64,000 bases of DNA from the NCBI GenBank assembly GCA_022711495.1, contig JAKLEX010000001.1, forward strand, positions 87,058 through 151,057. Direction: 5' to 3'. Both the position numbers and the translations under genes were made by a program. The notes under the pieces were generated by a model that saw nothing but the letters and a program-made list of their open reading frames with translations, ran no database searches and was not told the DNA's origin. Position 1 is the first letter of the stretch; each line of letters starts with the position of its first letter. Shown piece after piece: positions 13,415-61,137 of the stretch. This stretch comes from Patescibacteria group bacterium (lineage in GTDB: Bacteria; Patescibacteriota; Minisyncoccia; Phycocordibacterales; JAACPR01).

Positions 13415-15154
13415 TTGGAACAAATGTTCATCGATGAAAACAAACTTCAAGAGTTTATGATTGACTCTGGTATTGTTACCCGCGATATCATAGATCGCGC
13501 GGTGGAAATCGCTGGCAAGGATCGCGGCGTGGGGGACTATCTGGTTAGCGAAGGGATCATCTCCGAAGACGAGTTGAAACGGGTACAGGCCTACATATTG
13601 GGCATTCCTTTTATAAATGTTGGTGCGCAGAAAATTCCTCTTGAGGTTTTGAGTCTGATTCCCGAACCGATCGCTCGGAGAAGCAATATCGTGGCTTATA
13701 ACAAAGATTCCTCAGACCTGGAAGTGGCCATGCTTGATACCGATAATCTTAGCGCGATTGATTTCGTCAAAAAGAAAACGGGATTGAAAATTCTCCCAAG
13801 ACTTACTTCCACGGAGGGTATAAAAAAGGCCTTGGCCCAATATCAGAAAAGTCTGAAAGATGATTTTGGAGATATTATCCGACAGGAGACTAATAATCTG
13901 GCCGGTTCTGGCGTTGACGATCCGGAAAATTTGAAAAAAGTTGCCGGCGGATTACCGGTTGTTCGCATCGTTGATACTTTGTTGAAGCACGCTTTATTAC
14001 AAGGAGCGTCTGATATACACATTGAGCCGTCCGAAGACCAGGTAATCATCAGATACCGGGTTGATGGATTACTACATGACGCCATGACTTTGCCAAAAAA
14101 TAGTAGTTCGGCCATCGCCGCCCGTATCAAAGTTTTAGCCAGTCTTAGGTTGGATGAAAAACGTCTTCCGCAAGATGGCCGATTCAAAATGGAACTGGAA
14201 GGAGAAAAAGTTTCTTTCCGAGTTTCAATACTGCCGATTTATTACGGCGAAAAAATTGTCTTGCGCATTCTTCGGGAAGGAGCCGGCGGCTTTACTTTGG
14301 AATCGCTGGGTTTTCACGGCGATGGACTAGAAAGAATTCACCGGGCGCTTAAGCAAACTACGGGCATGGTTTTAACTACTGGCCCTACTGGCTCTGGAAA
14401 GACCACTACTTTGTATACTCTGTTGGATCTTTTGAATGTTCCGGACGTGAATATTTCCACCATTGAGGATCCTATTGAATATCAGATGCCCAGAATTAAT
14501 CAGACTCAAGTCAAACCGGACATTGGACTTTCTTTCGCCAACGGTCTGCGCGCACTGATTCGGCAGGACCCGGACATTATCATGGTCGGCGAGATCCGCG
14601 ACGGAGAGACGGCCGGTTTGGCGATAAACGCCGCGCTGACCGGGCACTTGGTTTTATCAACTCTTCACACCAACAGCGCCGCCGGCGCCATTCCAAGACT
14701 GATTGATATGGGCTCGCAGAGTTTCTTGCTGGTTTCCACTTTGAAAGTGATCGTTGCCCAGAGACTAGTCCGAAAACTTTCAATGAATCGCGAGAGATAT
14801 TTCTTGAAGAAAGCTGGAGTTGATCAGTTGGCAAAGATTGCCGACCTTGAGCGCTTACATCAAGTTTTAGTTGATGAAAAGATCATAGATAAAAACGTAT
14901 CGTGGACGCAAATCCCATTTTATCGACCGGTCGCGGCTTCTGGCGAAGACGGTTTTTCTGGTCGAATCGGTATTCATGAAATTTTAAACGTTTCTGAAAA
15001 CATTCGTGAGTTGATTATCAAGAACGCGACTTCCGATCAGATTGAAAAACAGGCTCGGATTGAAGGCATGCTTACGATGATTGAGGACGGCATCTACAAA
15101 GCGGTTTTGGGTCAGACAACCATAGAAGAAGTTCTTCGGGTTATTTCAGAGTAA
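13415..15154 (+). CDS. pilB: Type IV pilus assembly ATPase PilB (GspE family)
   Basis: N-terminal GSPII_E_N-like domain, Walker A GPTGSGKTTT, His box and Asp box; 579 aa; TTG start. Confidence 0.85.
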   Translation: MEQMFIDENKLQEFMIDSGIVTRDIIDRAVEIAGKDRGVGDYLVSEGIISEDELKRVQAYILGIPFINVGAQKIPLEVLSLIPEPIARRSNIVAYNKDSSDLEVAMLDTDNLSAIDFVKKKTGLKILPRLTSTEGIKKALAQYQKSLKDDFGDIIRQETNNLAGSGVDDPENLKKVAGGLPVVRIVDTLLKHALLQGASDIHIEPSEDQVIIRYRVDGLLHDAMTLPKNSSSAIAARIKVLASLRLDEKRLPQDGRFKMELEGEKVSFRVSILPIYYGEKIVLRILREGAGGFTLESLGFHGDGLERIHRALKQTTGMVLTTGPTGSGKTTTLYTLLDLLNVPDVNISTIEDPIEYQMPRINQTQVKPDIGLSFANGLRALIRQDPDIIMVGEIRDGETAGLAINAALTGHLVLSTLHTNSAAGAIPRLIDMGSQSFLLVSTLKVIVAQRLVRKLSMNRERYFLKKAGVDQLAKIADLERLHQVLVDEKIIDKNVSWTQIPFYRPVAASGEDGFSGRIGIHEILNVSENIRELIIKNATSDQIEKQARIEGMLTMIEDGIYKAVLGQTTIEEVLRVISE

Positions 15155-15163
15155 TTTATAAAT

Positions 15164-16384
15164 ATGGAAGTTGAATATAAATATCGGGCGATAAATGCTG
15201 ACAATGATTTAGTCACGGGCTTTAGAAGTGCTCCGGATGAAATATCTTTAAACCGGATTCTGCTCCAAGAGAGACTGAGACTTATTTCAGTTGAGCGCGT
15301 TTCTAGATTTCGCATTAAAAAACTCTTGGCTAAGTTGGGTGATTTCAGCCGAATTTCTGAACACGACAAAATAATTATGTACAGAAACCTTGGCTCAATG
15401 CTCAGCGCGGGATTGTCGTTGGCCAGAGCGATTTCTGTCATGTACCGCCAGACCACCAGTAAAGTTTTCCGAAAAATTCTTGGCAAGATTGATGAAAGCA
15501 TCAAGAAAGGTTCCAGTTTATCTGAAGCGTTCAGGCAATTTCCTCGGATTTTTAATCCGCTGGTTGTCTCCATGGTTAAGTCCGGCGAAGAAACTGGAAA
15601 CTTAGCCAAGTCTCTGCGCGTTACCGCCGAACAGATGGAGAAAACTTATCTGCTCAAGAAAAAAATACGCGGCGCGATGATTTATCCGGGCTTTATTATT
15701 CTGGCTATTTTTGTGGTTGGGATTTTTATGATGATTTATGTTGTTCCAGTTTTGACCGATACTTTTAACGAGCTGGAGATCGAGCTGCCAATGTCAACTC
15801 GGGCCATCATAAGTATCAGTGATTTCTTGCAAAATAATCTGTTGGGAGTCGCGGTGGGAATTTTGATTTTGGCCGCGCTGGTTATCTGGTTTTTGAGAAC
15901 TAAGTCTGGAAAGAGAGTCTTTGATTCCGCCCTGATTAAAGCCCCGGGCTTGTCTCCGATGATTAAGGAAATAAACTCCGCCAGGGTGGCCAGAGCCATG
16001 TCCTCGCTTCTTTCTGCCGGTGTGCCGGTGGTCAGGGCGTTAGAAATTTCTAAAGATATTGTCCAGAATTCTTACTACAAACAAGCTCTGGAAGGGGCGG
16101 CGAAAAATATTGGCGAGGGTCTTCTGATCTCCAAAATTTTTGCCGAAAATAAAGATCTTTTCCCGACTTTTGTTTCAGAGATGGTCTCGGTCGGGGAGGA
16201 AACTGGTGAACTCGGCGGGATGTTAAATGAGGTGGCGGTGTTTTATGAAGCAGAGGTTGATCAAAAAATAAAAAATATTTCCGCCATTATTGAACCAGCG
16301 CTGATGATTGTCGTTGGCGTGGCGGTCGGATTTTTTGCCCTGTCTATGATCGGTCCGATTTATAGTTTGTCCGAAGGCATATAA
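15164..16384 (+). CDS. pilC: Type IV pilus inner-membrane platform protein PilC (GspF family)
   Basis: Two repeated GspF domains, 3 TM segments, directly downstream of pilB. Confidence 0.8.
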   Translation: MEVEYKYRAINADNDLVTGFRSAPDEISLNRILLQERLRLISVERVSRFRIKKLLAKLGDFSRISEHDKIIMYRNLGSMLSAGLSLARAISVMYRQTTSKVFRKILGKIDESIKKGSSLSEAFRQFPRIFNPLVVSMVKSGEETGNLAKSLRVTAEQMEKTYLLKKKIRGAMIYPGFIILAIFVVGIFMMIYVVPVLTDTFNELEIELPMSTRAIISISDFLQNNLLGVAVGILILAALVIWFLRTKSGKRVFDSALIKAPGLSPMIKEINSARVARAMSSLLSAGVPVVRALEISKDIVQNSYYKQALEGAAKNIGEGLLISKIFAENKDLFPTFVSEMVSVGEETGELGGMLNEVAVFYEAEVDQKIKNISAIIEPALMIVVGVAVGFFALSMIGPIYSLSEGI

Positions 16385-21233: not shown

Positions 21234-22631
21234 TTATAAATTAATTGTCGCAAATTCTAATTTGGCGAAGGAATTTACGATAATCAATATATATTTCAGA
21301 AATAAATAAGGCGCGAATCCGACAAACATGCCCAAAGTCTGGTTTAAAAAAGCCAGAACTGCGGCCAGAAAACCAAGAAGCATGGTCAGAGGGATAAATT
21401 GCAAAGTGATGATGTTAACTATTGGTGCGACGACCGACAATTGACCGGTCATTTTCATAAGTAACGGCAAAACCGCTATTTGGGTTGAAAAAGTTGAAGT
21501 AGTAATCTCGCGCAGGTTGAATTTTTCGGGAATAAACCCGAATAATTTCTGAACGAATTTGTTTAAATTGATTAATCCTAAAGTTGCCGTAAAAGACAGC
21601 TGGAAAGAAGGGTCGTAAAACAAGATCATCGGATTAATTAGGATCATGACGGAACCGGCCAGAAACAGGGCGCGATTAACTGAATAAGTTCGGCCGGAAA
21701 TTCTGGCAGTTAAAGCCAGGAGAGTCATAATGGTTGATCTGATGACTGTCGCTCCGGATCCGACCATAACGCTGAATACGATAATTGAACTGGCGCCGAT
21801 AATTGCGGAAAGAAAACTTGGTAAAAAACTAAAGAATTTCAATATGGCCTCGGCGATAATTGTGACGTTATATCCGGACAAAACGATGATATGAACCAAC
21901 CCGACTTTTCTGAAATTATTTTCTAATTCCGCGCCAAGCGATCTCTTGGCGCCCAGTAGAATGCCGCCTAGCAATTCGGCTTCGGGAGAGGGGAGGATCT
22001 GATTAATTTTTTCTATAAATTTTTGTTTTATGCTGAAGATTAATCTCTCAAATTTAAGTTCGCCGTTAGACAGAATTTCTATTTTGGGATAATACATCAG
22101 TGAATAAACACCGTCCTTCGCCAAGAATTTTATGTAATCAAATTCTATTTCGTTTTCATTCAGAAAATTCTCTGGCAGATTTATTTTGCCGAAACTCTTA
22201 ATTTTTTGGCCGGTTAAAAGCTCCGGATAGTGGCCGGTGGTAATTATTACTTTTTCTTGAGTAAAATTCCGGCCGGAATCGTGCTCAATCATTTCTGTTT
22301 TGACGGTGATGCGGCTGTAAGACTCTCTTTTGTCTATTTCACCGACAATTTCTCCAACCAGAGATATTTTTTCTCCGGCGAACTCCGCTATTTCTGATTT
22401 ATGAAAAGATTTTCCACCGGACCAGATGGTCAAAGTTGAAAAGAAAAAAGCCAAAGCAACCAAGCCGGCGATTTTGTTTTTAAATAGTGCCCAAATCAAT
22501 AGGCAAATCAAAAATATCAAAAAAACCGCTAAATACAGCGGTATTATATAGGTATGGTGGTTGGAGAAATTAAAAACACTTGCGCCGATTATTACTCCGG
22601 TCGTGATTGAATGGATGAAAAACCGCGCCAC
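21234..22631 (-). CDS. comEC: ComEC/Rec2-family DNA-uptake channel protein (DUF4131 plus competence domain), lacking the C-terminal MBL domain
   Basis: Multi-pass membrane protein; competence-domain motif LPSPEAELLGGILLGAKRSLGAELENNFRKVGLVHIIVLSGYNV; ends without a metallo-beta-lactamase domain. Confidence 0.7.
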   Translation of the reverse strand: MARFFIHSITTGVIIGASVFNFSNHHTYIIPLYLAVFLIFLICLLIWALFKNKIAGLVALAFFFSTLTIWSGGKSFHKSEIAEFAGEKISLVGEIVGEIDKRESYSRITVKTEMIEHDSGRNFTQEKVIITTGHYPELLTGQKIKSFGKINLPENFLNENEIEFDYIKFLAKDGVYSLMYYPKIEILSNGELKFERLIFSIKQKFIEKINQILPSPEAELLGGILLGAKRSLGAELENNFRKVGLVHIIVLSGYNVTIIAEAILKFFSFLPSFLSAIIGASSIIVFSVMVGSGATVIRSTIMTLLALTARISGRTYSVNRALFLAGSVMILINPMILFYDPSFQLSFTATLGLINLNKFVQKLFGFIPEKFNLREITTSTFSTQIAVLPLLMKMTGQLSVVAPIVNIITLQFIPLTMLLGFLAAVLAFLNQTLGMFVGFAPYLFLKYILIIVNSFAKLEFATINL

Positions 22632-23480: not shown

Positions 23481-24359
23481 GTGATCTCTAAAGATTCATG
23501 GCGGCGGTTGCTGGCCTTTATTTTGTTCGTTACCCTTCTGGTCTTTGCCATATTTGTCTTTTCGATCTTGCGCCACGAACGTGCCAGAAAGTTTTTGACC
23601 GTGGCCTTTCTTGATGTCGGTCAGGGAGATTCAATATTTATTGAAACTCCCGGCGGTCGTCAGGTTTTGATTGACGGCGGGCCCACCAGTTCTGTGACAA
23701 GGCCGCTTTCAAAACTTTTGCCGTTTTACGACAGGGAAATTGATTTAATAATTTCTAGCCATTCAGACCTAGATCATATCGGCGGATTCCCGGAAATCTT
23801 CAAAAGATTTCAAGTGAAAAGATATGCGACTTCCGACAAAAAAGATGCCGCCGATCTCTATCTTGAGCTGGAAAAATTAAGCGAGAAAGAAAAGGCCGAC
23901 AGGATATTTTTGAAATCAGGCGACAGGATAATTTTAGACGGCGAGAGCAATATTTTTTTGGATGTTTTGTGGCCCGAGGACGCCGATTCCGCCAGCGACA
24001 ACAATGACGCGTCAATTGTGGTGCGCCTGGTTTTTGGGAGCGAAAGTTTTATTTTGACGGGTGACGCGTCGGCCTCGGTTGAATCTGAACTAATTTCTCG
24101 ACTGATTGATCCGGACTTTTTGCGCGCTAATGTTTTAAAAGTCGGGCATCACGGTTCCAAAACTTCAACTAGTCAGAGCTTTCTTGATCTGGTCAACCCT
24201 GAATATGCCGTCATCTCCGTAGGTCTGGATAACAAGTTTGGTCATCCGGACGTGGAAACTGTAAGTTTGTTAATTGATAAAAATATAAAGATTTTTCAAA
24301 CAATAGATTCTGGCTCAATTATATTCGAGACAGACGGGAAGTCTCTTTGGGTTAAGTAA
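23481..24359 (+). CDS. Stand-alone ComEC-type metallo-beta-lactamase domain protein with an N-terminal TM anchor
   Basis: VAFLDVGQGDSIFIETPGGRQVLIDGGP ... SHSDLDHIGG ... KVGHHGS matches the MBL domain normally fused to the ComEC C-terminus. Confidence 0.7.
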   Translation: MISKDSWRRLLAFILFVTLLVFAIFVFSILRHERARKFLTVAFLDVGQGDSIFIETPGGRQVLIDGGPTSSVTRPLSKLLPFYDREIDLIISSHSDLDHIGGFPEIFKRFQVKRYATSDKKDAADLYLELEKLSEKEKADRIFLKSGDRIILDGESNIFLDVLWPEDADSASDNNDASIVVRLVFGSESFILTGDASASVESELISRLIDPDFLRANVLKVGHHGSKTSTSQSFLDLVNPEYAVISVGLDNKFGHPDVETVSLLIDKNIKIFQTIDSGSIIFETDGKSLWVK

Positions 24360-46059: not shown

Positions 46060-46830
46060 ATGATTAAACTCAAGACCAAAGAAGAAATTGCTAAGCTCCG
46101 AATCGCCGGCAGAAAGCTCGCGAAAGTCTTGAAAGAAACAGCTAAGCTGGTTAAACCCGGCGTTAAATCTTTTGATTTAAACAACTTTGCGCATCAGATG
46201 ATTATCAAGATGGGGTGCCGCCCATCTTTTTTAAATTACAAACCAACCGGCGTTCGGCGCCCATTTCCGGCAAGCATTTGTCTTTCTATCAATGATGAAA
46301 TAGTTCACGGCATTCCGAACGAATCAGAAAAAGAAATAAAAACCGGTGACGTGGTCAAGGTTGATATCGGCCTGGTTGATGATGGTTTGTTCGTGGATAG
46401 TGCCACGACGGTTATTGTCGGCGACGCGCCGAAAGAAGTTCGAGAATTAGTCTCCAGAACAAAGGAAGCTTTAAATACGGCCATTAAACAGTGCCGGGTC
46501 GGTGGGCATATCGGCGATGTTGGTGCCGCAGTGGAAAAAGTCGCGAAACGGGCCGGCCTATCCGTGGCCAAAGAATTGACCGGACACGGTGTTGGATATG
46601 CCGTTCATGAAGCTCCATACGTTCCGAACTCTGGTCGTCCCGGTCAGGGAGAAAAAATTGAAAATGGCCTGGTTATCGCCATTGAGCCGATGCTTTGTTT
46701 GGGGCGCGGCGATATTATGTTGGCCAGAGATGGCCACACGTATAAGACTCGCGACGGTTCGCTGGCGGCCCAATTTGAGCACACCATCGCCGTTACGGAA
46801 GAGGGGCCGATTATTTTAACCGAGAATTAA
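46060..46830 (+). CDS. map: Methionine aminopeptidase, type I
   Basis: Pita-bread fold metal ligands in DVVKVDIG...D..., HGIGYAVHE, IEPM; 256 aa. Confidence 0.9.
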   Translation: MIKLKTKEEIAKLRIAGRKLAKVLKETAKLVKPGVKSFDLNNFAHQMIIKMGCRPSFLNYKPTGVRRPFPASICLSINDEIVHGIPNESEKEIKTGDVVKVDIGLVDDGLFVDSATTVIVGDAPKEVRELVSRTKEALNTAIKQCRVGGHIGDVGAAVEKVAKRAGLSVAKELTGHGVGYAVHEAPYVPNSGRPGQGEKIENGLVIAIEPMLCLGRGDIMLARDGHTYKTRDGSLAAQFEHTIAVTEEGPIILTEN

Positions 46831-46848
46831 TTTATAAAATAAGACAAC

Positions 46849-47445
46849 ATGAGAAGAGAACAGACACTAGTGATTATTAAACCAGATGGGATACAGCGAA
46901 CTTTAATAGGGGAAATAATTCATCGGCTTGAAAGAATCGGCCTTAAGTTGGTGGCCATGAAGATGCTTGTGCCGGACAAAAAGCACGTTGAGAAACACTA
47001 CACTTTGGATCCGGAGTGGATTGAAAAAGTCGGGCAAAAGACGATTGACTCTTACAAAAGCAAAGGACATAAGCCCATAGATACTGATCCAATCAGTGCT
47101 GGCAAAAGGATTTTGGGAATTTTAGTTCACTATATGACTTTTGGTCCAGTTGTGGCTATGGTTTGGCAAGGAGGTCACGCGGTTGAAATAGTACGAAAAC
47201 TGGTCGGCGGCACGGAGCCACTGACTTCTGATGTGGGGACAATTCGGGGAGATTTCGTTTTGGATTCTTACATGATTGCTGATATTTCCGGTCGCGGAGT
47301 TCGTAATCTTCTTCACGCCTCCAGTTCCGTTGCCGACGCCCAAAAGGAAATTGAACTGTGGTTTGATAAAAAAGAAATCGTTAATTATCGTCTGGTTCAA
47401 GAGCAGATACTATACGACGTTAACCTTGACGGAATTCTAGAATAA
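46849..47445 (+). CDS. ndk: Nucleoside-diphosphate kinase (long form with an insertion)
   Basis: TLVIIKPDGIQRTLIGEIIHRLE...; active-site NLLHASSS (His); 198 aa. Confidence 0.75.
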   Translation: MRREQTLVIIKPDGIQRTLIGEIIHRLERIGLKLVAMKMLVPDKKHVEKHYTLDPEWIEKVGQKTIDSYKSKGHKPIDTDPISAGKRILGILVHYMTFGPVVAMVWQGGHAVEIVRKLVGGTEPLTSDVGTIRGDFVLDSYMIADISGRGVRNLLHASSSVADAQKEIELWFDKKEIVNYRLVQEQILYDVNLDGILE

Positions 47446-50640: not shown

Positions 50641-50677
50641 ATGAAGTTTTAGGATATCCTAATTTCTCTATCACTTA

Positions 50678-50830
50678 TTCATCAAATGAAGCGTCGTCAT
50701 CCTCGTCTTCTTCTACCCAAGAGTCCGATTCTTCCGCCGATTCCGAGGTATCTGCTTCAGACTCAGCGCCACTATCAACCATCGCTTCATCTTTCACCTC
50801 CTCGTCCTTTTTTACTTTTTTAGGCATTTT
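50678..50830 (-). CDS. Hypothetical small, highly acidic protein (50 aa; below the ORF-track cutoff)
   Basis: Manual translation of the minus strand: MPKKVKKDEEVKDEAMVDSGAESEADTSESAEESDSWVEEDEDDDASFDE; followed by a hairpin terminator. Confidence 0.3.
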
Positions 50831-51065
50831 CTATACTTAAATTTAGACCAATTTAATAAACGGTACCCGAATAAACCATACCCAAGTCATATTCGGGAGT
50901 ACCAAATATGTTATCACGAAGTTTTTACGGCGCAACTGGAATGGCGATTTGAGGTGATTCCGGCCAATTATAGCGTTCACGCGCGGGCCCATTCATCCAA
51001 GAGGCTTTTTTAAAAAGCCATAAATTGGGTATAATTACCTTTATAGTGTATCTTTCAATATCATA

Positions 51066-53822
51066 ATGGAAAGTTTTAATCTTGAGAAAAAAGTATCATC
51101 ACCGCGGGAAGAGCTTTCTTATTTGCGAGAAAAAATCGCGGGACGAGAGAGAGCTGGTCTTCAAGGCGAGCAAATTCCCGATCGAGAAGCTATTATCCGT
51201 GACGCGTTAGATGAATATTCAAAACAGAATCCGGAGCAAGTTTTTGACAAGAGCTCTGTTATTCCCGAGAAATTCAGGGAAGAGATCGTCTTACGTCTAA
51301 AGCCGGAAGAGCACGACGCCAAAATGTCCGAACTGATCTCTATTGTCTATGAGAAAGGAATTATAAATGCCCTTGATATCATTCAGAGATTAAGAGATCC
51401 GCACCTGACCGACGATTTCCACCGATTTCTCGTGCAATATTTGAAAGAAGGATATAAGGTGACCGGCCTAGAGACAAAGATGTCGCTAAACAAAGCTCTT
51501 AATCGTACATTGTTTGAAGTGTCGCTTGGCTATAGTCGTCAAAAAGAAGATTTTGACCTCAAAAAGTTTTTTGAATTGATGGAACAGTTCTATCTCGGCA
51601 TGTTATCTGTCGCCGATTCTGACGAGGAAGAGTATTTAACTATTGAAATCGCCAACGCCATCGGTAGTCGGGAGTTTATCTTTTATGTTTCTGTTCCGGA
51701 TCCCAAGATAGATTTGTTTGAAAAACAACTAATCTCTGTTTTTCCGGACGCGATGATCAGGGAACAAAAAGACGACTTTAATATTTTTAACGAGAAAGGC
51801 TCCTCCAAAGGAGTCTATCTGGATCAAGAAAAGGCTCCAGCCAGGACCATTAGGACGCATGACACTTTCGGCAGTGATCCGATGAAAGTTTTGCTCAACG
51901 TTTTTTCCAAATTAAAAGAAAAGGAAGAAGCCGCCGCGATTCAGATGATTTTCAAGCCGGTTGGAGATTTTTACTTGAAATATTATCGCAAGGCCTTATC
52001 AAAAGTTGAAAAAGGTGCCAAAGACGCCGAAGAGCTGCATATAAAAAATACCTGGAAGAGCGTTTGGGGTGCCAGAATCTCTAATTTTATAAGTCCCTCT
52101 CCATTTCAAAAAGATTCTCACAAAGACCCAACGCCGGTCAATGTCGATTCAATCTTGCTTGAGAACATCAAGAACAAAACCAGCTCTCCAATTGTCTCAA
52201 CCAACTTGAGGATAATTGTCTCAACCGGAACAGAACAGAGAACTTCCGCTGTCTTGAAAGATATTGAATCGGCCTTCAATCAATTTGAAAATACTAACGG
52301 TAATAAATTTAAATTTATTGAATTCAAATCCGGCAAAGAAAGGGAATTGTTCAAGGGCTTCTCTTTTCGGGAGTTCAATCGAGATTATGATTTGCCGTTG
52401 AACATCAAAGAATTGGCGACGGTGATTCATTTTCCATCAGAAGATGCCATAAGTTCTCCAGAGCTGAAGACCAACAAGATGAAAACCAGTTCCGCTCCTT
52501 TGACTATCCCGAAGGCCGGCATTTACCTTGGTAAAAACGTCCATAGAAATATGGAGACCGATATTTATTTCGCGCCCGAAGACAGAATGCGTCACTTTTA
52601 CGTCATTGGTCAGACCGGCACCGGTAAAACCAATCTCTTGAGGAGTATGATAATTCAAGATATTCAGAACGGTGAGGGCGTTTGCATGATTGATCCACAC
52701 GGATCAGATGTTCAAGATGTTCTAGCTAATATTCCGAAAGAGAGATACGGAGATGTTATCTATTTTGATCCGAGTTACACCGACCGGCCGATGGCATTGA
52801 ATATGCTGGAATATGACAGAAAAAAGCCGGAGCAGAAAACTTTCGTGGTCAATGAATTGTTTAGCATTTTCCAGAAATTGTACGGGTCAAATCCGGAAGC
52901 TTTCGGTCCGATGTTTGAACAATATTTTCGAAATGCCACGATGCTGGTTATCGACGACCCAGAAACCGGCTCAACTTTGTTGGATGTCTCTCGTGTTTTG
53001 TCAGACAAGAGTTTCCGCGAATTGAAGTTAAGCCGATGCAAGAATCCGGTCGTCATTCAGTTTTGGCGAGAAATCGCCTCTAAGGCCGGCGGCGAGGCTT
53101 CGTTGGAAAATATCGTGCCTTATATCACCAGCAAGTTTGATGTTTTCTTGGCCAATGAAATTATGCGACCGGTAATCGCCCAAGAAAAATCCAGTTTTAA
53201 TTTCCGCGAAATAATGGATCAGAAGAAGATTCTTTTGGTCAATCTCTCCAAGGGCAATCTCGGAGACACAAACTCTAATCTTATTGGGCTTATCTTGGTT
53301 GGGAAAATTTTGATGGCGGCCCTTTCCAGAGTTGATACTCCCGGAGAAAATTATTCGCCTTTCTATCTTTACATTGATGAGTTCCAAAACGTCACCACGA
53401 ATTCTATTGCCACGATCTTATCCGAAGCTAGAAAATATAAATTATCGCTGAATATTGCTCACCAGTTTATCGCTCAAATTGATGAAAAGATTCGAGATTC
53501 AGTTTTTGGCAACGTCGGCTCTATGGCCGTTTTCCGTGTCGGTTCTGATGACGCGGAGTTTCTGGAAAAACAGTTATCGCCCGTTTTCACGGCCAAAGAC
53601 ATCATGAACATAAATAATTTCAACGCCTATTTGAAAATGCTTTCTGCTGGTGTACCGATTGACGCTTTTAATATAAAAACAGAACCGCCACAGATTGGTA
53701 GTCGTAGCCAAATAGAGCCGTTAAAACAGATGTCCTATATAAAATACGGCCAGGACAGAGTCGTGGTGGAAAATCAGATCATAGAGAAATACAGAAAAGC
53801 TCCGCTGTCGCCCAGGATTTAG
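51066..53822 (+). CDS. Large P-loop NTPase of the VirB4/TraG(VirD4)/HerA-FtsK superfamily with a ~500-aa N-terminal domain of unknown function
   Basis: Walker A FYVIGQTGTGKTNLL, post-P-loop CMIDPHGSD, Walker B YLYIDEFQNV, and C-terminal ARKYKLSLNIAHQFIAQI (the RK...ATQ-type motif of type IV secretion ATPases); no N-terminal TM. Confidence 0.55.
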   Translation: MESFNLEKKVSSPREELSYLREKIAGRERAGLQGEQIPDREAIIRDALDEYSKQNPEQVFDKSSVIPEKFREEIVLRLKPEEHDAKMSELISIVYEKGIINALDIIQRLRDPHLTDDFHRFLVQYLKEGYKVTGLETKMSLNKALNRTLFEVSLGYSRQKEDFDLKKFFELMEQFYLGMLSVADSDEEEYLTIEIANAIGSREFIFYVSVPDPKIDLFEKQLISVFPDAMIREQKDDFNIFNEKGSSKGVYLDQEKAPARTIRTHDTFGSDPMKVLLNVFSKLKEKEEAAAIQMIFKPVGDFYLKYYRKALSKVEKGAKDAEELHIKNTWKSVWGARISNFISPSPFQKDSHKDPTPVNVDSILLENIKNKTSSPIVSTNLRIIVSTGTEQRTSAVLKDIESAFNQFENTNGNKFKFIEFKSGKERELFKGFSFREFNRDYDLPLNIKELATVIHFPSEDAISSPELKTNKMKTSSAPLTIPKAGIYLGKNVHRNMETDIYFAPEDRMRHFYVIGQTGTGKTNLLRSMIIQDIQNGEGVCMIDPHGSDVQDVLANIPKERYGDVIYFDPSYTDRPMALNMLEYDRKKPEQKTFVVNELFSIFQKLYGSNPEAFGPMFEQYFRNATMLVIDDPETGSTLLDVSRVLSDKSFRELKLSRCKNPVVIQFWREIASKAGGEASLENIVPYITSKFDVFLANEIMRPVIAQEKSSFNFREIMDQKKILLVNLSKGNLGDTNSNLIGLILVGKILMAALSRVDTPGENYSPFYLYIDEFQNVTTNSIATILSEARKYKLSLNIAHQFIAQIDEKIRDSVFGNVGSMAVFRVGSDDAEFLEKQLSPVFTAKDIMNINNFNAYLKMLSAGVPIDAFNIKTEPPQIGSRSQIEPLKQMSYIKYGQDRVVVENQIIEKYRKAPLSPRI

Positions 53823-53857
53823 GAGGTAATTGTTTTGATATCGGTTATAATATCGTT

Positions 53858-54844
53858 ATGCGCAGAACACTTATTGCATTTTTTGTAATCGCACTTATTT
53901 TTCCAGTTTCAGCTCTGGCTTCGCAGAATATCTTTTATTATTTTGATAATGCTTACGGGTTAAATAGCTTGAAGAAGAATTATAAAAAAATTGATGTCGT
54001 GGCTCCACAGATATATGAAGTTGGCTACGATCTGGAGGTCTCTAAACCGAAGTCAAAGAAAATTCTTAAAGAAGCCGACAAGAAAAACGTTTCCGTCATG
54101 CCCCTCATTGTTAATGATGACTTTAGCAAGGTGTTGATGTCCGACATTTTGATAAATAATAAGGCGCAAGATAAAATTATTGATTTCATGATCAAAGAAG
54201 CCGAAAAATATGACTATATCGGTTGGCAATTTGATTTTGAAAATATCAATCACTTAGATCGCGACTTGTACACGGCTTTTGTTAAAAAAACTTATCCGCG
54301 GCTGAAAGAGGAAGGACTCCAATTCAGCGTGGCCGTCGTTGTTCGTTCCACGGACTACAATATCAATGATAAAAACCAAGATTGGAGCGGTGCGTACGAT
54401 TACAAAGAACTTTCCAAGAACTCTGACTTTCTGTCGCTGATGACTTATGATGATCCAAATTCAATCGGACCGGTAGCTTCTTTGCCTTATGTGAACAGAA
54501 TCTTGGATTACATGCTAACCCAGGCGCCGGCGGAAAAACTTTCGTTGGGAATTCCGTTTTATTGTTGGCAATGGCAGAATGGAGTCCGAGCTGGAGCGAC
54601 GACTTACAAATTAGCCCAAAAGAATTATAAAAAGGGCAAAAACCGAGATAGAGATTTTGATCCGGTTTTAGGTGCCGAGAAGTTTGAATTCACCAAGGGG
54701 CGAGCGGATTTTGTTATCTGGTGCGACAATGACGAGAGCTTGGAAATTAAGGAGGAAATCATCAAAAATAAGGGCTTGGCCGGTTTTTCAGCTTGGGCTC
54801 TCGGCCAGGAGGATCCGGCCATCTGGAGATATTTGGGGAAATAA
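53858..54844 (+). CDS. Secreted glycoside hydrolase family 18-like protein (chitinase or peptidoglycan-hydrolase-like)
   Basis: Signal peptide; GH18 motifs YIGWQFDFE (degenerate DxxDxDxE with the D-x-E retained), LSLMTYDD (MxYD), SLGIPFY (GxPxYG). Confidence 0.6.
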   Translation: MRRTLIAFFVIALIFPVSALASQNIFYYFDNAYGLNSLKKNYKKIDVVAPQIYEVGYDLEVSKPKSKKILKEADKKNVSVMPLIVNDDFSKVLMSDILINNKAQDKIIDFMIKEAEKYDYIGWQFDFENINHLDRDLYTAFVKKTYPRLKEEGLQFSVAVVVRSTDYNINDKNQDWSGAYDYKELSKNSDFLSLMTYDDPNSIGPVASLPYVNRILDYMLTQAPAEKLSLGIPFYCWQWQNGVRAGATTYKLAQKNYKKGKNRDRDFDPVLGAEKFEFTKGRADFVIWCDNDESLEIKEEIIKNKGLAGFSAWALGQEDPAIWRYLGK

Positions 54845-54881
54845 TTTTGTCGTTATATAATTTAAGCGTAATCAAATCATT

Positions 54882-55058
54882 ATGTCTTTAGATTTTCAAA
54901 AAGGAGATTTTTATCAAAATACACAAAGTTCGGGCGAAGAATTGGGATTTGTGACTAGAATGTTTATAAAATTAGGCGTTGCCAAAGATCAGAGGTCAGC
55001 CAACGTCGCCATGTTAGTTTTCGTTGCCATCTGTTTCGCGCTGATATTGATTTTTTAG
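54882..55058 (+). CDS. Hypothetical tail-anchored small membrane protein (58 aa; below the ORF-track cutoff)
   Basis: Manual translation: MSLDFQKGDFYQNTQSSGEELGFVTRMFIKLGVAKDQRSANVAMLVFVAICFALILIF. Confidence 0.2.
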   Translation: MSLDFQKGDFYQNTQSSGEELGFVTRMFIKLGVAKDQRSANVAMLVFVAICFALILIF

Positions 55059-55108
55059 TTATCAGATGGAGTACTGGGAAAGATTATTAGATGTAATATA
55101 ATAATTGT

Positions 55109-55426
55109 ATGAATTTTGAACTTGAGGATAGCAGACAGAATTTTATTAACCCAAACGCCGCTGACCAGGAAGAGAAAGGCTTTTCTCTGGCCAGTTTTTT
55201 GGTCAAGAAAAAGATTGTAAGCGATTACCGCAAAGCCAATATCTTGTTATTGTCGGTGTCGGTAATAATTATCGTGATTTCTGTTTTAATGGCCTATTTT
55301 GTTTTGCGGCCAGAAAAAGTAGTAAATTATGAAGATCTGCCCTTGAGCGAAAAGATGAAGATTTCGCCCGAACTCAGAGAGACTCTTGATAGAATACAAT
55401 TAGATAATCAAAAATATGGAAACTAA
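55109..55426 (+). CDS. Hypothetical single-pass membrane protein (105 aa)
   Basis: TM ILLLSVSVIIIVISVLMAYFVL; 3' end overlaps the pilin gene start by 11 nt. Confidence 0.3.
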   Translation: MNFELEDSRQNFINPNAADQEEKGFSLASFLVKKKIVSDYRKANILLLSVSVIIIVISVLMAYFVLRPEKVVNYEDLPLSEKMKISPELRETLDRIQLDNQKYGN

Positions 55427-56015
55427 AAAAATAAGAGGTTTTACTTTAATAGAGTTGTTAGTAGTTATCGCCATTATCGCTTTACTATCCAGTATCGTTT
55501 TGACTTCGCTTCAGGATGCCAGACTTAAAGCCCAGGACTCAAAGGTCATCCAGCAGGTTAGAGAATTCCAAAACGCCGTAGCGATTTTTATGGTGGACAA
55601 CAATCATTATCCCAACACGGGACGAGATGTGGGCACAAAGGTTTGCATCGGCCCAGAAAGCGTAGACTGTTATTTTCAGAATGTACACATAGAAACTCGA
55701 CCGGAATCTGATGATTTTACCAGTTTGCTTCCGAAAAGATATTGGGTCGGGGAATGGCTTGTGCCGACAGCTAACGCAGCGAGCATGAGTTCTTATATTG
55801 CCTATAACTTTATAAATGTTCCTTATGTCTACACGGCCGAAGGCAAAACCGGCGGGGGCATTATTTATGAATGTACGGACGAAGATGATACGGGTGATTG
55901 TTCTTCTGCAGTAGTGTATTGGGCCACAGCAAAACCAGTTCAGAAGGGGACCCTTATGGAGGGAACTGAGGGCGTATATTACCAAGACGCCGGCGATCCT
56001 GGATCTGGCTACTAA
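55416..56015 (+). CDS. Type IV pilin-like (prepilin N-terminal methylation/cleavage motif) protein
   Basis: Class III signal: METKKIRG|FTLIELLVVIAIIALLSSIV; 199 aa. Confidence 0.7.
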   Translation: METKKIRGFTLIELLVVIAIIALLSSIVLTSLQDARLKAQDSKVIQQVREFQNAVAIFMVDNNHYPNTGRDVGTKVCIGPESVDCYFQNVHIETRPESDDFTSLLPKRYWVGEWLVPTANAASMSSYIAYNFINVPYVYTAEGKTGGGIIYECTDEDDTGDCSSAVVYWATAKPVQKGTLMEGTEGVYYQDAGDPGSGY

Positions 56016-56032: not shown

Positions 56033-58480
56033 TCATTTGTCGTCTGTTGGCACGAGAGTTTTTCCTCTTTGATATCTGGCATCAAAGAGCAGGAAAATTA
56101 ACGACAGGCACAGCCCAATCAACGAGATGATGTGTCCTACCACTACAGGTTTTGGCGTCTCAAAATAAATTATTATCGCCCGCTCTGCAAAAATCAAATC
56201 TTGTCCCGGCCCAGCCAGATAGATTTTTTCTCCGCCAACCGATTTCCAGCCCGGAAAATAGCTCTGCTTTATCAAAATTGGAACCGCCGCGGTTTTTTCT
56301 GCCGACTCGATATCTAAATCTGCGCTCAAAACATTTTCGGAAAAGCCAATACGCGCACTTAATTTTTCTGGTCTTCTATCCTCAACAAAATCGTCCAGCA
56401 GTTTTACAAAAGTATCGTATTGTTTCTCAAAATTCTCCGCCCACAAGTCGTTTAGTAAAAAGATCCCGCCAGTGTCGGAGGCCCCAAAGACAAACTCATA
56501 TAATTTATCGTCTGATGGCAGAGCGATAATTTTGCCACCACTTGCCAGATATTCTTTTAGGGCAGAAATGGCCCCATCCGCGTTTTCATAACTGTAGGAA
56601 TCTATCAATATGTATTTAAATTTTTTAAGATCTTCACTTTTGTCCAGGAGTTTTTCATCGGCATAGACAAAAGTAAAATCTGTTCTGGCTCGTTTTAAAT
56701 TAATTTCTTCTACCAGAGAAATAAAGTCAAACCGGCGTTGCGGAATTTCCTTGGTATTTAAATCGGAAAAGACCAAAATAGGTTCTTTTTCTGGCAAACC
56801 TACCGTCTGTGGCTCCATCAGTATTCTATAGATAGCCCAGTCATCAAAATCTTTTTCTTTTATGGCAAGGCCGGAATCTTCAACCAAATCTTTTTGATCT
56901 CGTGATCTTAATATCAAATATTTAATTCCGTAAAAGTTGGCGACCTTTATTTGGTCCTCGACGGGGTTATCCAGATATTCTTGGTCAAAAGCTAAGTCGC
57001 ATTTTATACCCCAACATTCTGGCCAATACGACAGGGAATTTCGTATCGGAACCCAAAATAGGGAACTTAGCGCGGATTCTCTGATTACGCTGTAAGCTGT
57101 TTTATTGCCTTGGATACCCAAGTAGGCATCCACAACCCCCGTGGAGGGTTTTTCATATGGAGTGTACCACTCAACTAATGCCAACCCATCTTTGTCTTTC
57201 ATATAATCAAGTATGGGCTGTATGCTTTCAGTGACGTTATCTATGTAGATACCACGTAAATCGTCATGAAAGGCCCCATTTATTTTCGTTGCATAGATTG
57301 AGTAGCTAGTGATGATCAAGATTAATAAACAATATACCGTTTTGATTTTGATAAATCGCCGAATTGTTACAAAAGTGAAAACCGCCAGTATCGGCAAGAA
57401 AAAATAAATTGTTCCGATCCATCTATCTATGTGTATTGGCAGTGATGGCAACCAAATATAAGCTTTAGTAACTAGAAACAAATTCGCCACAATCATTAAA
57501 AACCCTAGAGCTTTTATTAAATTATTCTTTTTGATGAAAGAGAATACCAGTGAAATTATTACGAAAACCGGAAAATAATAATGGTAATAATAAAGCCCTG
57601 ACAATGATCCCCACTTCCAACCAAGCGGCCGGCCGGCGAAATAATCGTAATAGTGAAGCATCGGCAGATACCAGAAAGAAGCGATCAGGACCGGGATAAA
57701 ACCGGAGAGGAAATACAGACAGATAAATTGCACCAGCGATCTGGCGCCGTTTACATTTTTTCTTCTGTCAATCAGACGAAGAATAAATATCAGACCGAAG
57801 ATAAAAAAGGCGATAATCGCTATGTGGACATTGGTTAACAAAATCAGAAACTGAAATGCGCCGGCGTAATACTTGTTGGCCGGTTTTTTCTCAACGTCGA
57901 GAAAAAAGATCAACCAAAAAACCAAAAACACAAAAGCCAAAGATTGGGTGACCAGACCATTGTTAAGCGAACTAGCCAAGGAAACTCCCACATAGCCCAA
58001 TTCCGATTTCGCTGAAATTAATCCGGCGGACAAAACCAAAACCCAAAAAGATTGGAACTTTGATTTGCTGATTTGCGAGTGATACAAAGCGGATAGGCCC
58101 ACCGGAATTAATGTTGCCGTCAATAGTGGGATGGTCTTAAACACGGCATCAAACTCTATGGCCGATATTTTATAAATTACAGCGCACAGATAATAAAAAA
58201 CCGGCGGATAAAATTGTGGAAAGGGCATGCCGTTATACCAATTTGGTATCCAGCCCCAGAATGTCGGAAAAATATTTTCGGCGTAAAGTTTGGCGATAGC
58301 GTAATGTCCGGAACCATCCCAGCCACCAACAAATTGATTGGTTAAATAAGTCCGAATCAGGTCTTTATTAAGTGTGTACAATAAAATGGCCGAAACTGCT
58401 GTCAGAAAAACAAAAAAGGCAAAATCACTGGTGATTATTTTTACGAAAATCCTGTTAATTTTTTTGAAACACACTGCCAT
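56033..58480 (-). CDS. Large polytopic membrane protein, putative GT-C-fold glycosyltransferase (YfhO/ArnT/PMT-like)
   Basis: About 14 N-terminal TM helices with aromatic-rich first loops (GWDGSGHY...FWGWIPNWYNGMPFPQFYPP), a ~350-aa extracytoplasmic domain, and a final C-terminal TM; adjacent to the GtrA-GT2 gene. Confidence 0.45.
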   Translation of the reverse strand: MAVCFKKINRIFVKIITSDFAFFVFLTAVSAILLYTLNKDLIRTYLTNQFVGGWDGSGHYAIAKLYAENIFPTFWGWIPNWYNGMPFPQFYPPVFYYLCAVIYKISAIEFDAVFKTIPLLTATLIPVGLSALYHSQISKSKFQSFWVLVLSAGLISAKSELGYVGVSLASSLNNGLVTQSLAFVFLVFWLIFFLDVEKKPANKYYAGAFQFLILLTNVHIAIIAFFIFGLIFILRLIDRRKNVNGARSLVQFICLYFLSGFIPVLIASFWYLPMLHYYDYFAGRPLGWKWGSLSGLYYYHYYFPVFVIISLVFSFIKKNNLIKALGFLMIVANLFLVTKAYIWLPSLPIHIDRWIGTIYFFLPILAVFTFVTIRRFIKIKTVYCLLILIITSYSIYATKINGAFHDDLRGIYIDNVTESIQPILDYMKDKDGLALVEWYTPYEKPSTGVVDAYLGIQGNKTAYSVIRESALSSLFWVPIRNSLSYWPECWGIKCDLAFDQEYLDNPVEDQIKVANFYGIKYLILRSRDQKDLVEDSGLAIKEKDFDDWAIYRILMEPQTVGLPEKEPILVFSDLNTKEIPQRRFDFISLVEEINLKRARTDFTFVYADEKLLDKSEDLKKFKYILIDSYSYENADGAISALKEYLASGGKIIALPSDDKLYEFVFGASDTGGIFLLNDLWAENFEKQYDTFVKLLDDFVEDRRPEKLSARIGFSENVLSADLDIESAEKTAAVPILIKQSYFPGWKSVGGEKIYLAGPGQDLIFAERAIIIYFETPKPVVVGHIISLIGLCLSLIFLLFDARYQRGKTLVPTDDK

Positions 58481-58499
58481 GCTTGGTGTCCTGTCGTGC

Positions 58500-59624
58500 C
58501 TAATATTTGCCAGTAAGGAAATTATATTGGATTAAGAGAAAATCTCCCAGAGTTAGCAAAGTATCGCGAATCGGCCGAAATCGTGATTCTTTTCTGTCAA
58601 TCCAACGGATTGGCACTTCCAGTATTTTTAATTCATAATGCTGGGCTAAAGCGAGCAGCTCAAGGTCAAAACCATAGCCGGTGATCTTTTGTCTCCGGAC
58701 GATTTGTTCAACAACTTCCCGTTTTATCAATTTGAAGCCGCATTGGGTGTCTTTGATGTCTTTGATTAAAGCCGTGCTTAAAAACGAACCAATCTTGCTG
58801 ATAAGCCGGCGATAAGAAGCGCGCTTAGTTTCAATAACGCTTCCAAGCAACTTTCTGGAGCCAACCACGACATCATATTCAGGAATGTATTTTTGCAATT
58901 TTGTTAATTCTTCAATTGGAGTTGAATTGTCGGCATCTGCGAAGAGAACATATTTTCCGTCGCTGGATAGGGCCCCGATTTTCAAAGCATTTCCTTTGCC
59001 AGTATTTCTATCCAAGACGATCAATTTTAAATCCGGCGAATTATTTTGGCCTTTCTTTATAATTTCCGTCGTTTGGTCTGAAGAGCCATCATCAACGACG
59101 ATAATTTCATAAGAAAGTTTTGATTTTAGGAAAAAGTTTCTGATTTCAGAGAGGGTTTTTTCAATAACCGATTCCTCGTTATATGTCGGGATGACGACGG
59201 AATACTCAAAGTGATAACTTTTGTCCAGAATCGCCTCTTTTATGACCGGGCGGAATGTCCACTGTCGGTTCCCCAGATAATTCCATAACAGTACGATTAG
59301 GGAAGTCAGGGCCTTGGCCAGTAAGTACCAGATGCCCAGTATTATGTTTAACAAAAACATCAGCAAAATCGTTAATAGAAGCCCGACTACCGAGACCAAA
59401 AAGAATTTCAAATATTGCTGGTGATAGGCTTTGTTTCTGTTTTTGAACGTCCATTTTTTATTTAAAACAAAGTTACTGGTTGCGGCGGCGACGAAAGAGA
59501 CGGCGGCGGCTGACAAAACATGCCACTGCAAAAACTCTACTAGCACAAACAAGAGAGACAAATCTAAAACGGTACCAGACATTCCGACAATTGAGTATCT
59601 AATCATCTTTTTGATCTCTTGCAT
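58500..59624 (-). CDS. GtrA-like flippase domain fused to a family-2 glycosyltransferase (polyprenyl-phosphate sugar synthase, DPM1/GtrB/CsbB-like)
   Basis: N-terminal 4-TM GtrA-like region (YSIVGMSGTVLDLSLLFVL...NFVLNKKWTF...GNRQWTF); GT2 motifs YSVVIPTYNEE, VVDDGSSD, and a downstream QxxRW-like RRQKITGYGFD. Confidence 0.7.
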   Translation of the reverse strand: MQEIKKMIRYSIVGMSGTVLDLSLLFVLVEFLQWHVLSAAAVSFVAAATSNFVLNKKWTFKNRNKAYHQQYLKFFLVSVVGLLLTILLMFLLNIILGIWYLLAKALTSLIVLLWNYLGNRQWTFRPVIKEAILDKSYHFEYSVVIPTYNEESVIEKTLSEIRNFFLKSKLSYEIIVVDDGSSDQTTEIIKKGQNNSPDLKLIVLDRNTGKGNALKIGALSSDGKYVLFADADNSTPIEELTKLQKYIPEYDVVVGSRKLLGSVIETKRASYRRLISKIGSFLSTALIKDIKDTQCGFKLIKREVVEQIVRRQKITGYGFDLELLALAQHYELKILEVPIRWIDRKESRFRPIRDTLLTLGDFLLIQYNFLTGKY

Positions 59625-60213: not shown

Positions 60214-61137
60214 ATGCGCTTTAATTTATTCTGCCGTCACAAAGCTTGTTCCCAATCTGGTTTCACCCTCCTGGAGATGCTTTTGGTGATTGCCATTATC
60301 GCTATTTTGGCCGCCATCGTTATCGTGGCAATCAACCCGGCGCGGCAATTGGCCCAAGCTAGAAACGCCCAAAGAGCTAGTGATATTAATGCTATATATA
60401 AAGCCGTCCAGCAATATTACCTGGACGAACTAGATTGGCCGGATGGTGACCTGGACGGCTCTTTACAAGAAATCTGCGATACCGGCGGCGATACCGAAAT
60501 CCCGAATTGTTTGGATCTTTCGGCTGAACTGGTACCGACTTATTTGTCTGCGCTACCAATTAATCCGGGAGGAGAAAATTATGAAATTGCTTTGCAAACT
60601 AGCAATAAACTAGCACTAATTGCTCCGGGCTCTACTGAAGAGGGTTTGGGCGGCGTGGCCATTGGCACCTCAACATCGCTGCTCGGAGGAGGCGAAGATG
60701 TGCCTTGTTCTGAACAAGAAGGAGATGCTCGTCGATACTGTGATTTGGAAGATATAAACGACGCCATTGTTGCCTACATCGCCGCCAACGAACACGCGCC
60801 ATATTTGGATTGTGGTGATATCACAGAACCAGACAAATTCTGCCAGGCCTGCGAGACGGAAGGATGTGTTGATTGGGACACGTTAGCAGCAGAATTGGCA
60901 GAATATATAGATCCTTTGCCGACAGACCCTTGCGGTGATGCTTGTTATGTAGAAGAGCCGCGAACTTTCTATACTTATGCCTATGTCGCCCCATCTTGTC
61001 TGGCATTTTGGTACTCAGAAAACCCAGAAGCTTGCAGTGAAGAAGAGGGCTGCTACTCTAATGAAGCCTATGGGCTACACGCAGATACTTGGGATGATGA
61101 AGGGGAAAGTATAAGTTATGGTTTCGGCTCTTTCTGA
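60214..61137 (+). CDS. Type IV pilin-like protein with a Cys-rich, acidic C-terminal domain
   Basis: Prepilin leader MRFNLFCRHKACSQSG|FTLLEMLLVIAIIAILAAIVIVAI; C-terminal domain with about 12 Cys. Confidence 0.65.
   Translation: MRFNLFCRHKACSQSGFTLLEMLLVIAIIAILAAIVIVAINPARQLAQARNAQRASDINAIYKAVQQYYLDELDWPDGDLDGSLQEICDTGGDTEIPNCLDLSAELVPTYLSALPINPGGENYEIALQTSNKLALIAPGSTEEGLGGVAIGTSTSLLGGGEDVPCSEQEGDARRYCDLEDINDAIVAYIAANEHAPYLDCGDITEPDKFCQACETEGCVDWDTLAAELAEYIDPLPTDPCGDACYVEEPRTFYTYAYVAPSCLAFWYSENPEACSEEEGCYSNEAYGLHADTWDDEGESISYGFGSF

Follow-up and report, generated by a model that had tools for sequence, protein, structure and literature searches.

Among the known systems that come closest to the protein analysed here are the coupling proteins (T4CPs) and VirB4 ATPases of type IV secretion systems (T4SSs). 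A survey of 3,035 Patescibacteria genomes identified 5,713 VirD4-type homologues in 2,918 of them (96%), with 148 of these homologues lying near virB4, and VirB4 itself in 2,417 genomes; S. epibionticum can dispense with its t4cp homologue but not with the T4SS, and exaptation was suggested for the orphan T4CP homologues (Quinonero-Coronel et al., 2025; PMC12102498). A T4SS locus of Saccharibacteria without recognisable coupling and relaxase proteins has also been described (Wang et al., 2023; PMC10633639). Here we analyse an ATPase gene of this kind in a 64,000-nucleotide stretch of chromosomal DNA (contig JAKLEX010000001.1, positions 87,058 to 151,057; hereafter the window) from a Patescibacteria bacterium of the Paceibacteria/Parcubacteria type, a member of the candidate phyla radiation (CPR). 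The gene is the first of five co-directional genes that an initial annotation, made from the sequence alone, had joined into a single secretion or DNA-transfer apparatus. We find instead that the region probably consists of three independent units that have come to lie side by side, with the ATPase as a soluble, stand-alone core enzyme.

In Paceibacteria a motor ATPase of the secretion type, encoded in a ribosomal-operon neighbourhood with no secretion partners nearby, ranks among the most strongly conserved proteins. CPR bacteria rely on hosts for nucleotides and lipids, and a T4SS is essential in their only genetically tractable species; whether this ATPase feeds a T4SS or has another role, such as DNA handling, bears on how these cells live. 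The region also shows that in compact genomes tight co-directional spacing alone is no sign of a functional module.

Results

Sequence and predicted structure of the ATPase

The five open reading frames (ORFs) of the region were found where the initial annotation had placed them, and encode the following proteins (lengths in amino acids, aa):

51066..53822, + strand: ATPase, 918 aa, DUF8128 plus a T4CP-type P-loop domain, soluble (ORF, Pfam, NCBIfam)
53858..54844, + strand: secreted glycoside hydrolase family 18 (GH18) protein, 328 aa, SleL/YaaH/YdhD subfamily (Pfam, homologue alignment)
54882..55058, + strand: sm58, membrane protein of 58 aa with a C-terminal anchor (hydrophobic helix)
55109..55426, + strand: sm105, single-pass membrane protein of 105 aa, overlapping the pilin start by 11 nt (hydrophobic helix)
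55416..56015, + strand: type IV pilin, 199 aa, prepilin motif RG/FTLIE (N_methyl, TIGR02532)

Database searches returned many homologues for every one of the five, which are therefore real genes rather than chance ORFs. The 918-aa and 328-aa proteins have exact matches on record from a Candidatus Paceibacterota metagenome-assembled genome (MAG), the former under the NCBI title 'type IV secretion system DNA-binding domain-containing protein'. The GC content of the region is about 0.41, matching the surroundings, and scans of the region for promoters and terminators gave counts no higher than shuffled controls.

Within the ATPase the following parts were distinguished, with the help of AlphaFold2 (AF2) models:

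51066..51470, + strand: N-terminal helical extension, aa 1-135 (AF2 secondary structure; matches to representatives that start only at aa ~130-160)
51471..52460, + strand: DUF8128 alpha/beta domain, aa ~136-465, resembling the N-terminal domain of VirB4 (AF2 and Foldseek)
52503..53675, + strand: P-loop NTPase domain of the VirD4/TraG/TraD type, aa ~480-870 (Pfam, NCBIfam, conservation)
52608..52631, + strand: Walker A, GQTGTGKT (translation; invariant in 38 homologues)
53373..53465, + strand: Walker B, IDEFQ, with the ARKYK...AHQ sensor/arginine motif (translation; invariant columns in 38 homologues)

The Walker A, Walker B and RK...AHQ motifs named by the initial annotation are thus all present in the translation, which at 53373-53465 reads IDEFQ...ARKYKLSLNIAHQ. 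Across the C-terminal half of the protein (aa ~485-835) the matches are to T4CP profiles, namely PF02534 T4SS-DNA_transf at aa 485-808 (32.7 bits, cut-off 20.1), PF10412 TrwB_AAD_bind (27.8 bits, cut-off 20.5) and PF12696 TraG-D_C (24.8 bits, cut-off 22). NCBIfam conju_CD1115 aligns at aa 488-830 with 48.4 bits against a cut-off of 250, SXT_TraD reaches 54.7 bits, far under its cut-off of 366, and CedD, CedB and HerA are likewise sub-threshold (HerA 17 bits against 970). The DUF87 match is limited to the P-loop stretch (aa 489-546), and PF01580 FtsK_SpoIIIE, at 16.5 bits, falls below its 24-bit cut-off and covers the P-loop only. No VirB4 profile (CagE_TrbE_VirB, AAA_10, or the NCBIfam/TIGR VirB4 models) matched at E<=0.01. 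A sequence search of the PDB with the family profile gave TrwB and DotL as the best matches, around the P-loop only, and does not separate VirB4 from VirD4. The hidden Markov model (HMM) built for the family scores F TraC at E 0.2 and a Bacillus AAA_10 VirB4 at E 0.24, and is not broad enough for classical F TraD or TraC to be scored, so that it does not place the family between the VirB4 and VirD4 clades. Transmembrane helix prediction on the 918-aa protein found none, the sole transmembrane-like segment being a buried core helix at aa 738-757; some Gram-positive T4CPs likewise lack transmembrane helices.

The N-terminal region of about 500 residues had been regarded as unique, but some 480 of these residues constitute Pfam DUF8128 (PF26449; precomputed annotation), and searching 1.84 billion representatives gave 843 clusters at E<=1e-3 and 435 at E<=1e-10. 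The window ATPase is a member of a large family in Parcubacteria. A search of a literature collection for DUF8128 found no paper that mentions it. When the full-length AF2 model was compared with the PDB by Foldseek, TrwK/VirB4 of R388 ranked top (E 1e-10, about 930 aligned columns), followed by TrwB (2e-6, about 400 columns), Cag-beta, HerA (5.6e-5) and DotL. A model of aa 1-481 alone has a predicted local distance difference test score (pLDDT) of 78 and a predicted TM-score (pTM) of 0.73; TrwK/VirB4 chains make up its top 14 PDB matches (probability 1.0, E 6e-6 to 9e-4), other folds beginning at E>=0.016, and in BFVD it matches phage G gp156 at 1e-14. With the FtsK profile below threshold and VirB4 and then TrwB as the best folds, the results support the placement of the ATPase in the type IV secretion ATPase branch, as had been proposed, and not with FtsK/SpoIIIE or HerA proper. 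It is VirB4-like by architecture and T4CP-like (VirD4/TraG) by sequence.

The N-terminal extension (the first ~130-135 residues) is missing from a distant DUF8128 subfamily of about 815-840 aa. In that subfamily an ORF of 135-141 aa abuts or overlaps the start of the ATPase gene (locus L095, 9601-10008; locus L096, 9574-9999). A split gene, in which this ORF would correspond to the extension of the window protein, was considered and rejected, as BLASTP found no similarity; the L095 and L096 ORFs are likewise unlike each other. PADLOC returned only weak matches, to defence ATPases over their motor domains (mad8 at 1.9e-14, DndH, HerA). Given that these are weak and confined to the motor domain, and that the gene behaves as a core gene, assignment to a defence system was also rejected. 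One MAG, CALRBL01, carries DUF8128 ATPases on two contigs (L005 and L032; 58% and 54% identity to the query), which represent either two paralogues or a mixed bin.

Gene neighbourhood and conservation of the ATPase

A scan of species-representative genomes returned more than 570 loci encoding ATPase relatives, and synteny was counted in the best 80 of these (51-59% identity, 7-kb flanks). The 7-kb flanks held a GH18 gene in none of the 80 loci, nor did the two small membrane proteins occur near the ATPase gene in any; a pilin of the window type lay within the flanks in three. The ATPase gene recurs at the end of the ribosomal cluster, in the order secY-adk-map-[ATPase]-ndk-DUF2238-betaCASP-(rplT rpmI infC): map upstream and ndk downstream were both present in 24 of the 80 loci, and at least one of them in about 41. 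In a second context, that of about 7-11 loci, the ATPase gene follows mraW-(FtsL-like)-PBP-Mur ligase and precedes YqeY-RmuC-RecR; the remaining neighbours are housekeeping genes of various kinds. When all flanking ORFs were clustered, no recurrent T4SS-type neighbour emerged, and across about 95 loci no relaxase or T4SS gene adjoins the ATPase gene.

In the window the str-S10-spc ribosomal series ends in secY-adk-map-ndk, with infC-rpmI-rplT running in reverse to it, and the site that the ATPase gene occupies in relatives is closed:

46060..47445, + strand: map-ndk junction with an 18-bp gap, in relatives the ancestral position of the ATPase gene (synteny)

Comparison of increasingly distant relatives traces how this came about. 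Relatives with 80% and 78% identity have the order ATPase-GH18-small ORF-pilins, as in the window; three relatives at genus level retain this arrangement with one or more pilins. At 70% identity the ATPase gene follows infC and is succeeded by genes for a 613-aa protein and glycosyltransferases, without GH18 adjacency, and at 67% it stands in an unrelated context from which the GH18 adjacency has gone. At 61-64% identity (L092 and L093) the ATPase gene lies between map and ndk, with the GH18 gene 4.3 kb downstream and six genes in between, in the order map-(small ORF)-ATPase-ndk-DUF2238-betaCASP-(rplT rpmI infC, reverse)-small ORF-GH18; a relative with 57% identity also has the ATPase gene between map and ndk. 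The adjacency of ATPase and GH18 is thus found only at 78% identity or above and is absent lower, and therefore reflects a recent local gene move: the ATPase gene moved about 4 kb, to the front of the GH18 gene, in the lineage leading to the window genus. The GH18 gene stays after the reverse-strand infC block with or without an adjoining ATPase gene and so has a fixed position of its own. Loss of the ATPase-GH18-pilin linkage in related genomes had been named in the initial annotation as what would overturn its proposal, and the linkage does not persist in relatives with 70% identity or less.

In L002, L092 (570-998) and L093 (6500-6937), map and the ATPase gene are separated by small acidic ORFs of 133-145 aa that match nothing in Pfam. 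By eye they share the pattern ...F...LK.KYG...Y.L.GG, and they could encode a lineage-specific partner.

Conservation was compared over the 24 loci that also carry secY (within L002-L077), as identity to the window. The ATPase domain (aa 480-870) has a mean identity of 73.5% and a minimum of 67.9%; the means for the other proteins, and for the DUF8128 domain, are:

IF3: 61.2%
SecY: 60.7%
L35: 59.7%
Ndk: 57.2%
L20: 54.8%
DUF8128 domain: 40.4%

The conservation of the ATPase is that of a core gene.

ATPase relatives in plasmids and phages

Wider relatives were sought by tblastn and HMM searches. The two-domain layout without transmembrane helices recurs in a protein of 885 aa encoded on a 27-kb plasmid of B. 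subtilis (family HMM 2e-43), the gene for which stands immediately before a replication-relaxation (relaxase) gene; the same plasmid carries a separate AAA_10 VirB4 further on, which the family HMM misses. On a C. botulinum plasmid an 800-aa relative directly follows TrbC/VirB2, and further relatives are pNOB8 ORF1025, a 'TraG/TraD/VirD4 family protein' from haloarchaea and, in phages of Bacillus and Geobacillus, SPO1 gp27.4, phage G gp156 and TP-84 gp48. The family HMM aligns to SPO1 gp27.4 near full length at 6e-33, its alignments to the plasmid and phage relatives span positions 148-912, and PHROG 5156 matches aa 184-910 of the window protein at 2.3e-79.

In SPO1 the gp27.4 gene overlaps the start of gp27.3, which is annotated 'replication initiation by nicking', an arrangement that mirrors the ATPase-relaxase pair of the plasmid. 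This suggests a conserved ATPase-nickase pair common to Herelleviridae phages and small Bacillus plasmids. A partition protein gene is also found upstream of the pair in both SPO1 (L098, 4536-8073) and the B. subtilis plasmid (L087, 3558-7117). The relatives linked to a nickase or relaxase are the sole functional hints, and they would point to the handling of DNA or nucleoprotein.

The GH18 protein

A signal-bearing GH18 protein directly after the ATPase had been correctly recognised: the Pfam GH18 match is 1.1e-22 (81.6 bits, cut-off 29.6) and a signal-like helix occupies aa 1-27. The catalytic motif WQFDFEN is at 54224-54244, with D126-x-E128 at 54233-54241; MTYD and GIPFY stand at aa 195 and aa 231, respectively. 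The DxxDxDxE motif had been described as degenerate, but YaaH has the same hFDFE, and 27 homologues show no variation at D126, E128, Y197, D198 or the C-terminal W. Homologues of about 330-340 aa number more than 1,000 in CPR, and a Pfam scan of the protein found no LysM domain.

Two readings had been offered for this protein, a chitinase-like lectin and a cell-wall enzyme, and the second is favoured. A chitinase or chitin-binding lectin would be in keeping with a Pfam family dominated by chitinases and with the lesser PDB matches to chitinases and lectins resembling them, but these matches, at 3.5e-6 or weaker for true chitinases, are far exceeded by those to the best solved relatives, YaaH/SleL, the 'cortical-lytic enzyme' and YdhD (1.6e-24 to 8e-19). 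The protein is not an inactive lectin, because the catalytic D-x-E is invariant, and we regard the chitinase or lectin reading as improbable. Judged by its sequence, it appears to be an exported enzyme of the peptidoglycan N-acetylglucosaminidase type, most likely one that cuts the glycan strands of peptidoglycan, in the cell's own wall or in that of the host. T4SS-associated lytic enzymes are lytic transglycosylases or of the CHAP/NlpC type, and to our knowledge GH18 is not a known class among them.

The pilin cassette

The pilin and the two tiny membrane proteins are as the initial annotation had described them. The pilin exceeds the cut-offs of both N_methyl (1.3e-8, 34.5 bits, cut-off 21.2) and TIGR02532 (32.5 bits, cut-off 16.3) and has a hydrophobic helix at aa 4-35; sm58 and sm105 have one hydrophobic helix each. 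Orthologues of sm58 (48-49% identity) occur in the genus-level relatives L081, L082 and L085, among pilin genes in L081 and L085, and a relative of sm105 in L083 (37.5% identity) directly precedes a pilin gene, the overlapping pair being kept as a unit. Both small proteins thus track pilin genes and not the ATPase. That sm58 and sm105 are paralogues was rejected, as BLASTP gave no alignment between them; sm105 has a weak, indirect link to the sm58 orthologue of L085 (8.7e-4, composition correction off).

Further features of the window that bear on the cassette and its borders are:

50675..50827, - strand: acidic ORF of 50 aa, upstream boundary of the region, conserved in the genus (ORF list, relatives)
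60214..61137, + strand: second type IV pilin, 307 aa, in the same variable envelope region (Pfam, NCBIfam)
13415..16384, + strand: PilB (T2SSE and MshEN) and PilC (T2SSF), about 39 kb from the pilin cassette (domain matches)

Downstream of the pilin, 56033-59624 (- strand) encodes an 815-aa polytopic membrane protein without a Pfam match and a GtrA+GT2 glycosyltransferase. Both genes are missing from the otherwise syntenic L081 and L085, and are therefore an insertion into a variable envelope/pilin region. The cassette is presumably served by the distant PilB and PilC. The window also encodes ComEC and a separate metallo-beta-lactamase (21234-22631, - strand, and 23481-24359, + strand), 30-40 kb from the pilin genes, so that pilus and DNA-uptake genes are scattered in this genome.

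Elsewhere in the window, fusA and rplJ/rplL flank an 859-aa ORF without a Pfam match (28526-31105, + strand). Its product combines a signal peptide with two hydrophobic helices in mid-protein and an acidic, Cys-rich C-terminal half, and resembles a surface protein within the ribosomal gene series.

Discussion

Our analysis points to three units in this region. The first would be an ATPase in which a VirB4-like N-domain (DUF8128) is fused to a nucleotide-binding domain of the VirD4/TraG type, its gene having stood at the end of the ribosomal-protein/secY-adk-map operon, before ndk, until it moved. The second would be an exported SleL/YaaH-type glycosidase acting on the peptidoglycan of its own or a host wall, and the third a variable type IV pilin cassette comprising the pilin and both small membrane proteins. 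Several observations weigh against this reading. The five genes are separated by only 35, 37, 50 and -11 nt, and such tight, co-directional genes may be co-transcribed and functionally linked in this lineage. The full-length AF2 model has a pLDDT of 68, with the N-domain good and the ATPase core poor, and TM-scores to VirB4 are low (0.33-0.37), for which reason homology of the modelled N-domain to VirB4 is no more than probable. Finally, the published T4CP counts (PMC12102498) are not specific to the DUF8128 family.

According to the initial annotation, the ATPase, GH18, small proteins and pilin would form a lineage-specific surface-filament or translocation apparatus, with the GH18 protein as a VirB1-like wall opener. 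The shared strand and tight spacing, the gene order kept in three genus-level relatives, and the presence of a wall-active enzyme type are all what such an apparatus would lead one to expect. However, the spacing is ordinary in this genome, where even map and ndk are 18 bp apart; the linkage has gone from more distant relatives, the GH18 gene keeps its post-infC site irrespective of the ATPase, the small proteins follow pilin genes, and Pfam and NCBIfam scans found no VirB3-, VirB6- or VirB8-like genes nearby. We therefore consider a five-gene apparatus very unlikely, and the new CPR secretion or filament machinery that it would have represented fails as a reading of this region. Still less credible is that the ATPase is a relic without host function, left by a phage, plasmid or conjugative element that had integrated. 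The strong, near full-length match to PHROG 5156 and the matches to plasmid and phage proteins would fit such an origin, but the gene holds a stable chromosomal position in core operons of at least 570 species-level genomes, is under very strong purifying selection and has a GC content of 0.41 like its surroundings, and no nickase, relaxase, integrase or other mobile-element gene was found beside it in the CPR loci examined.

A role in secretion at a distance deserves more weight. The ATPase could act as coupling protein for, or as a second VirB4-like motor in, a chromosomal Patescibacteria T4SS encoded elsewhere, docking to an inner-membrane complex of the VirB3/VirB8 type by its VirB4-like N-domain instead of by transmembrane helices. 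The T4CP-type signatures of its sequence and the VirB4-like fold predicted for its N-domain speak for this, as do the Saccharibacteria T4SS locus that lacks a recognisable coupling protein (PMC10633639) and the frequent location of T4CP genes far from virB4 (PMC12102498). Against it stand the complete lack of neighbouring T4SS genes in about 95 loci, the occurrence of T4CP homologues in more genomes than VirB4 (2,918 versus 2,417) and the dispensability of a t4cp homologue where the T4SS is essential (PMC12102498). We regard such a role as possible but doubtful. Conservation above that of SecY, moreover, is unusual for conjugative coupling proteins.

For the stand-alone ATPase, we tentatively prefer a housekeeping or DNA-handling role that is independent of a T4SS, and what likelihood remains falls to a protein substrate or some other role. 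By analogy with the FtsK-HerA/T4SS-ATPase superfamily and with the nickase-linked relatives, the protein would assemble into a ring in which ATP hydrolysis drives translocation of DNA or nucleoprotein, and its VirB4-like N-domain may dock it to a partner. A bolder and rather unlikely version holds that the DUF8128 ATPase is an essential, T4SS-independent housekeeping translocase of Paceibacteria that arose by exaptation of a T4CP-nickase module from a conjugative element or phage; its task could then be to segregate or resolve the chromosome, or to import DNA, in cells of ultra-small size. If this is true, a motor taken over from such a module is now under stronger constraint than SecY and ribosomal proteins.

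The components of the region are members of known families. With VirB4 (TrwK of R388; PDB 7o42, 7o43 and 8rtd) the ATPase shares the layout of an N-terminal alpha/beta domain and a C-terminal ATPase, but it matches no VirB4 sequence profile, its family HMM misses F TraC, and neither in the window nor in related loci does it have VirB3, VirB6, VirB8 or TrsD neighbours. With the T4CPs (VirD4/TraG/TraD, TrwB, DotL) it has in common the P-loop domain with Walker A, Walker B and RK...HQ and, in the AF2 model, a helical insertion between Walker A and B where TrwB has its all-alpha domain. It differs from them in that a 480-aa soluble region replaces the N-terminal transmembrane domain, in its lack of linkage to relaxase or T4SS genes, in its scores below the NCBIfam equivalog cut-offs and in being a slow-evolving core chromosomal gene. 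FtsK and SpoIIIE are set apart by the sub-threshold motor profile and by the lack of N-terminal transmembrane helices in the ATPase, and HerA by an N-domain fold that does not match and by its rank under VirB4 and TrwB in the Foldseek comparison. On the side of the hydrolase, SleL/YaaH and YdhD (PDB 4s3k, 4s3j and 3cz8) share the GH18 barrel, and YaaH the catalytic motif, but the window protein carries a Sec-type signal or anchor in place of LysM. SleL/YaaH are spore-cortex enzymes, whereas the window organism is non-sporulating, so that its substrate would be vegetative peptidoglycan.

PHROG 5156 and the DUF87-type ATPases of plasmids and phages are homologous over both the N-domain and the ATPase domain, and all lack transmembrane helices. 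Their identity to the CPR protein is about 20-26%, and they are genes of mobile elements whereas the CPR gene is a core chromosomal one; in SPO1 and the B. subtilis plasmid a nickase or relaxase gene directly follows, which the CPR gene lacks. The window ATPase fits the description of the orphan Patescibacteria T4CP homologues, although the published survey does not describe a DUF8128/VirB4-like N-domain, a ribosomal-operon site or extreme conservation (Quinonero-Coronel et al., 2025). Orphan T4CP-like genes in CPR have already been published and the ATPase family is catalogued in Pfam; as far as we have seen, a VirB4-like N-domain, a home in the ribosomal operon and conservation of this degree have not been described for these proteins.

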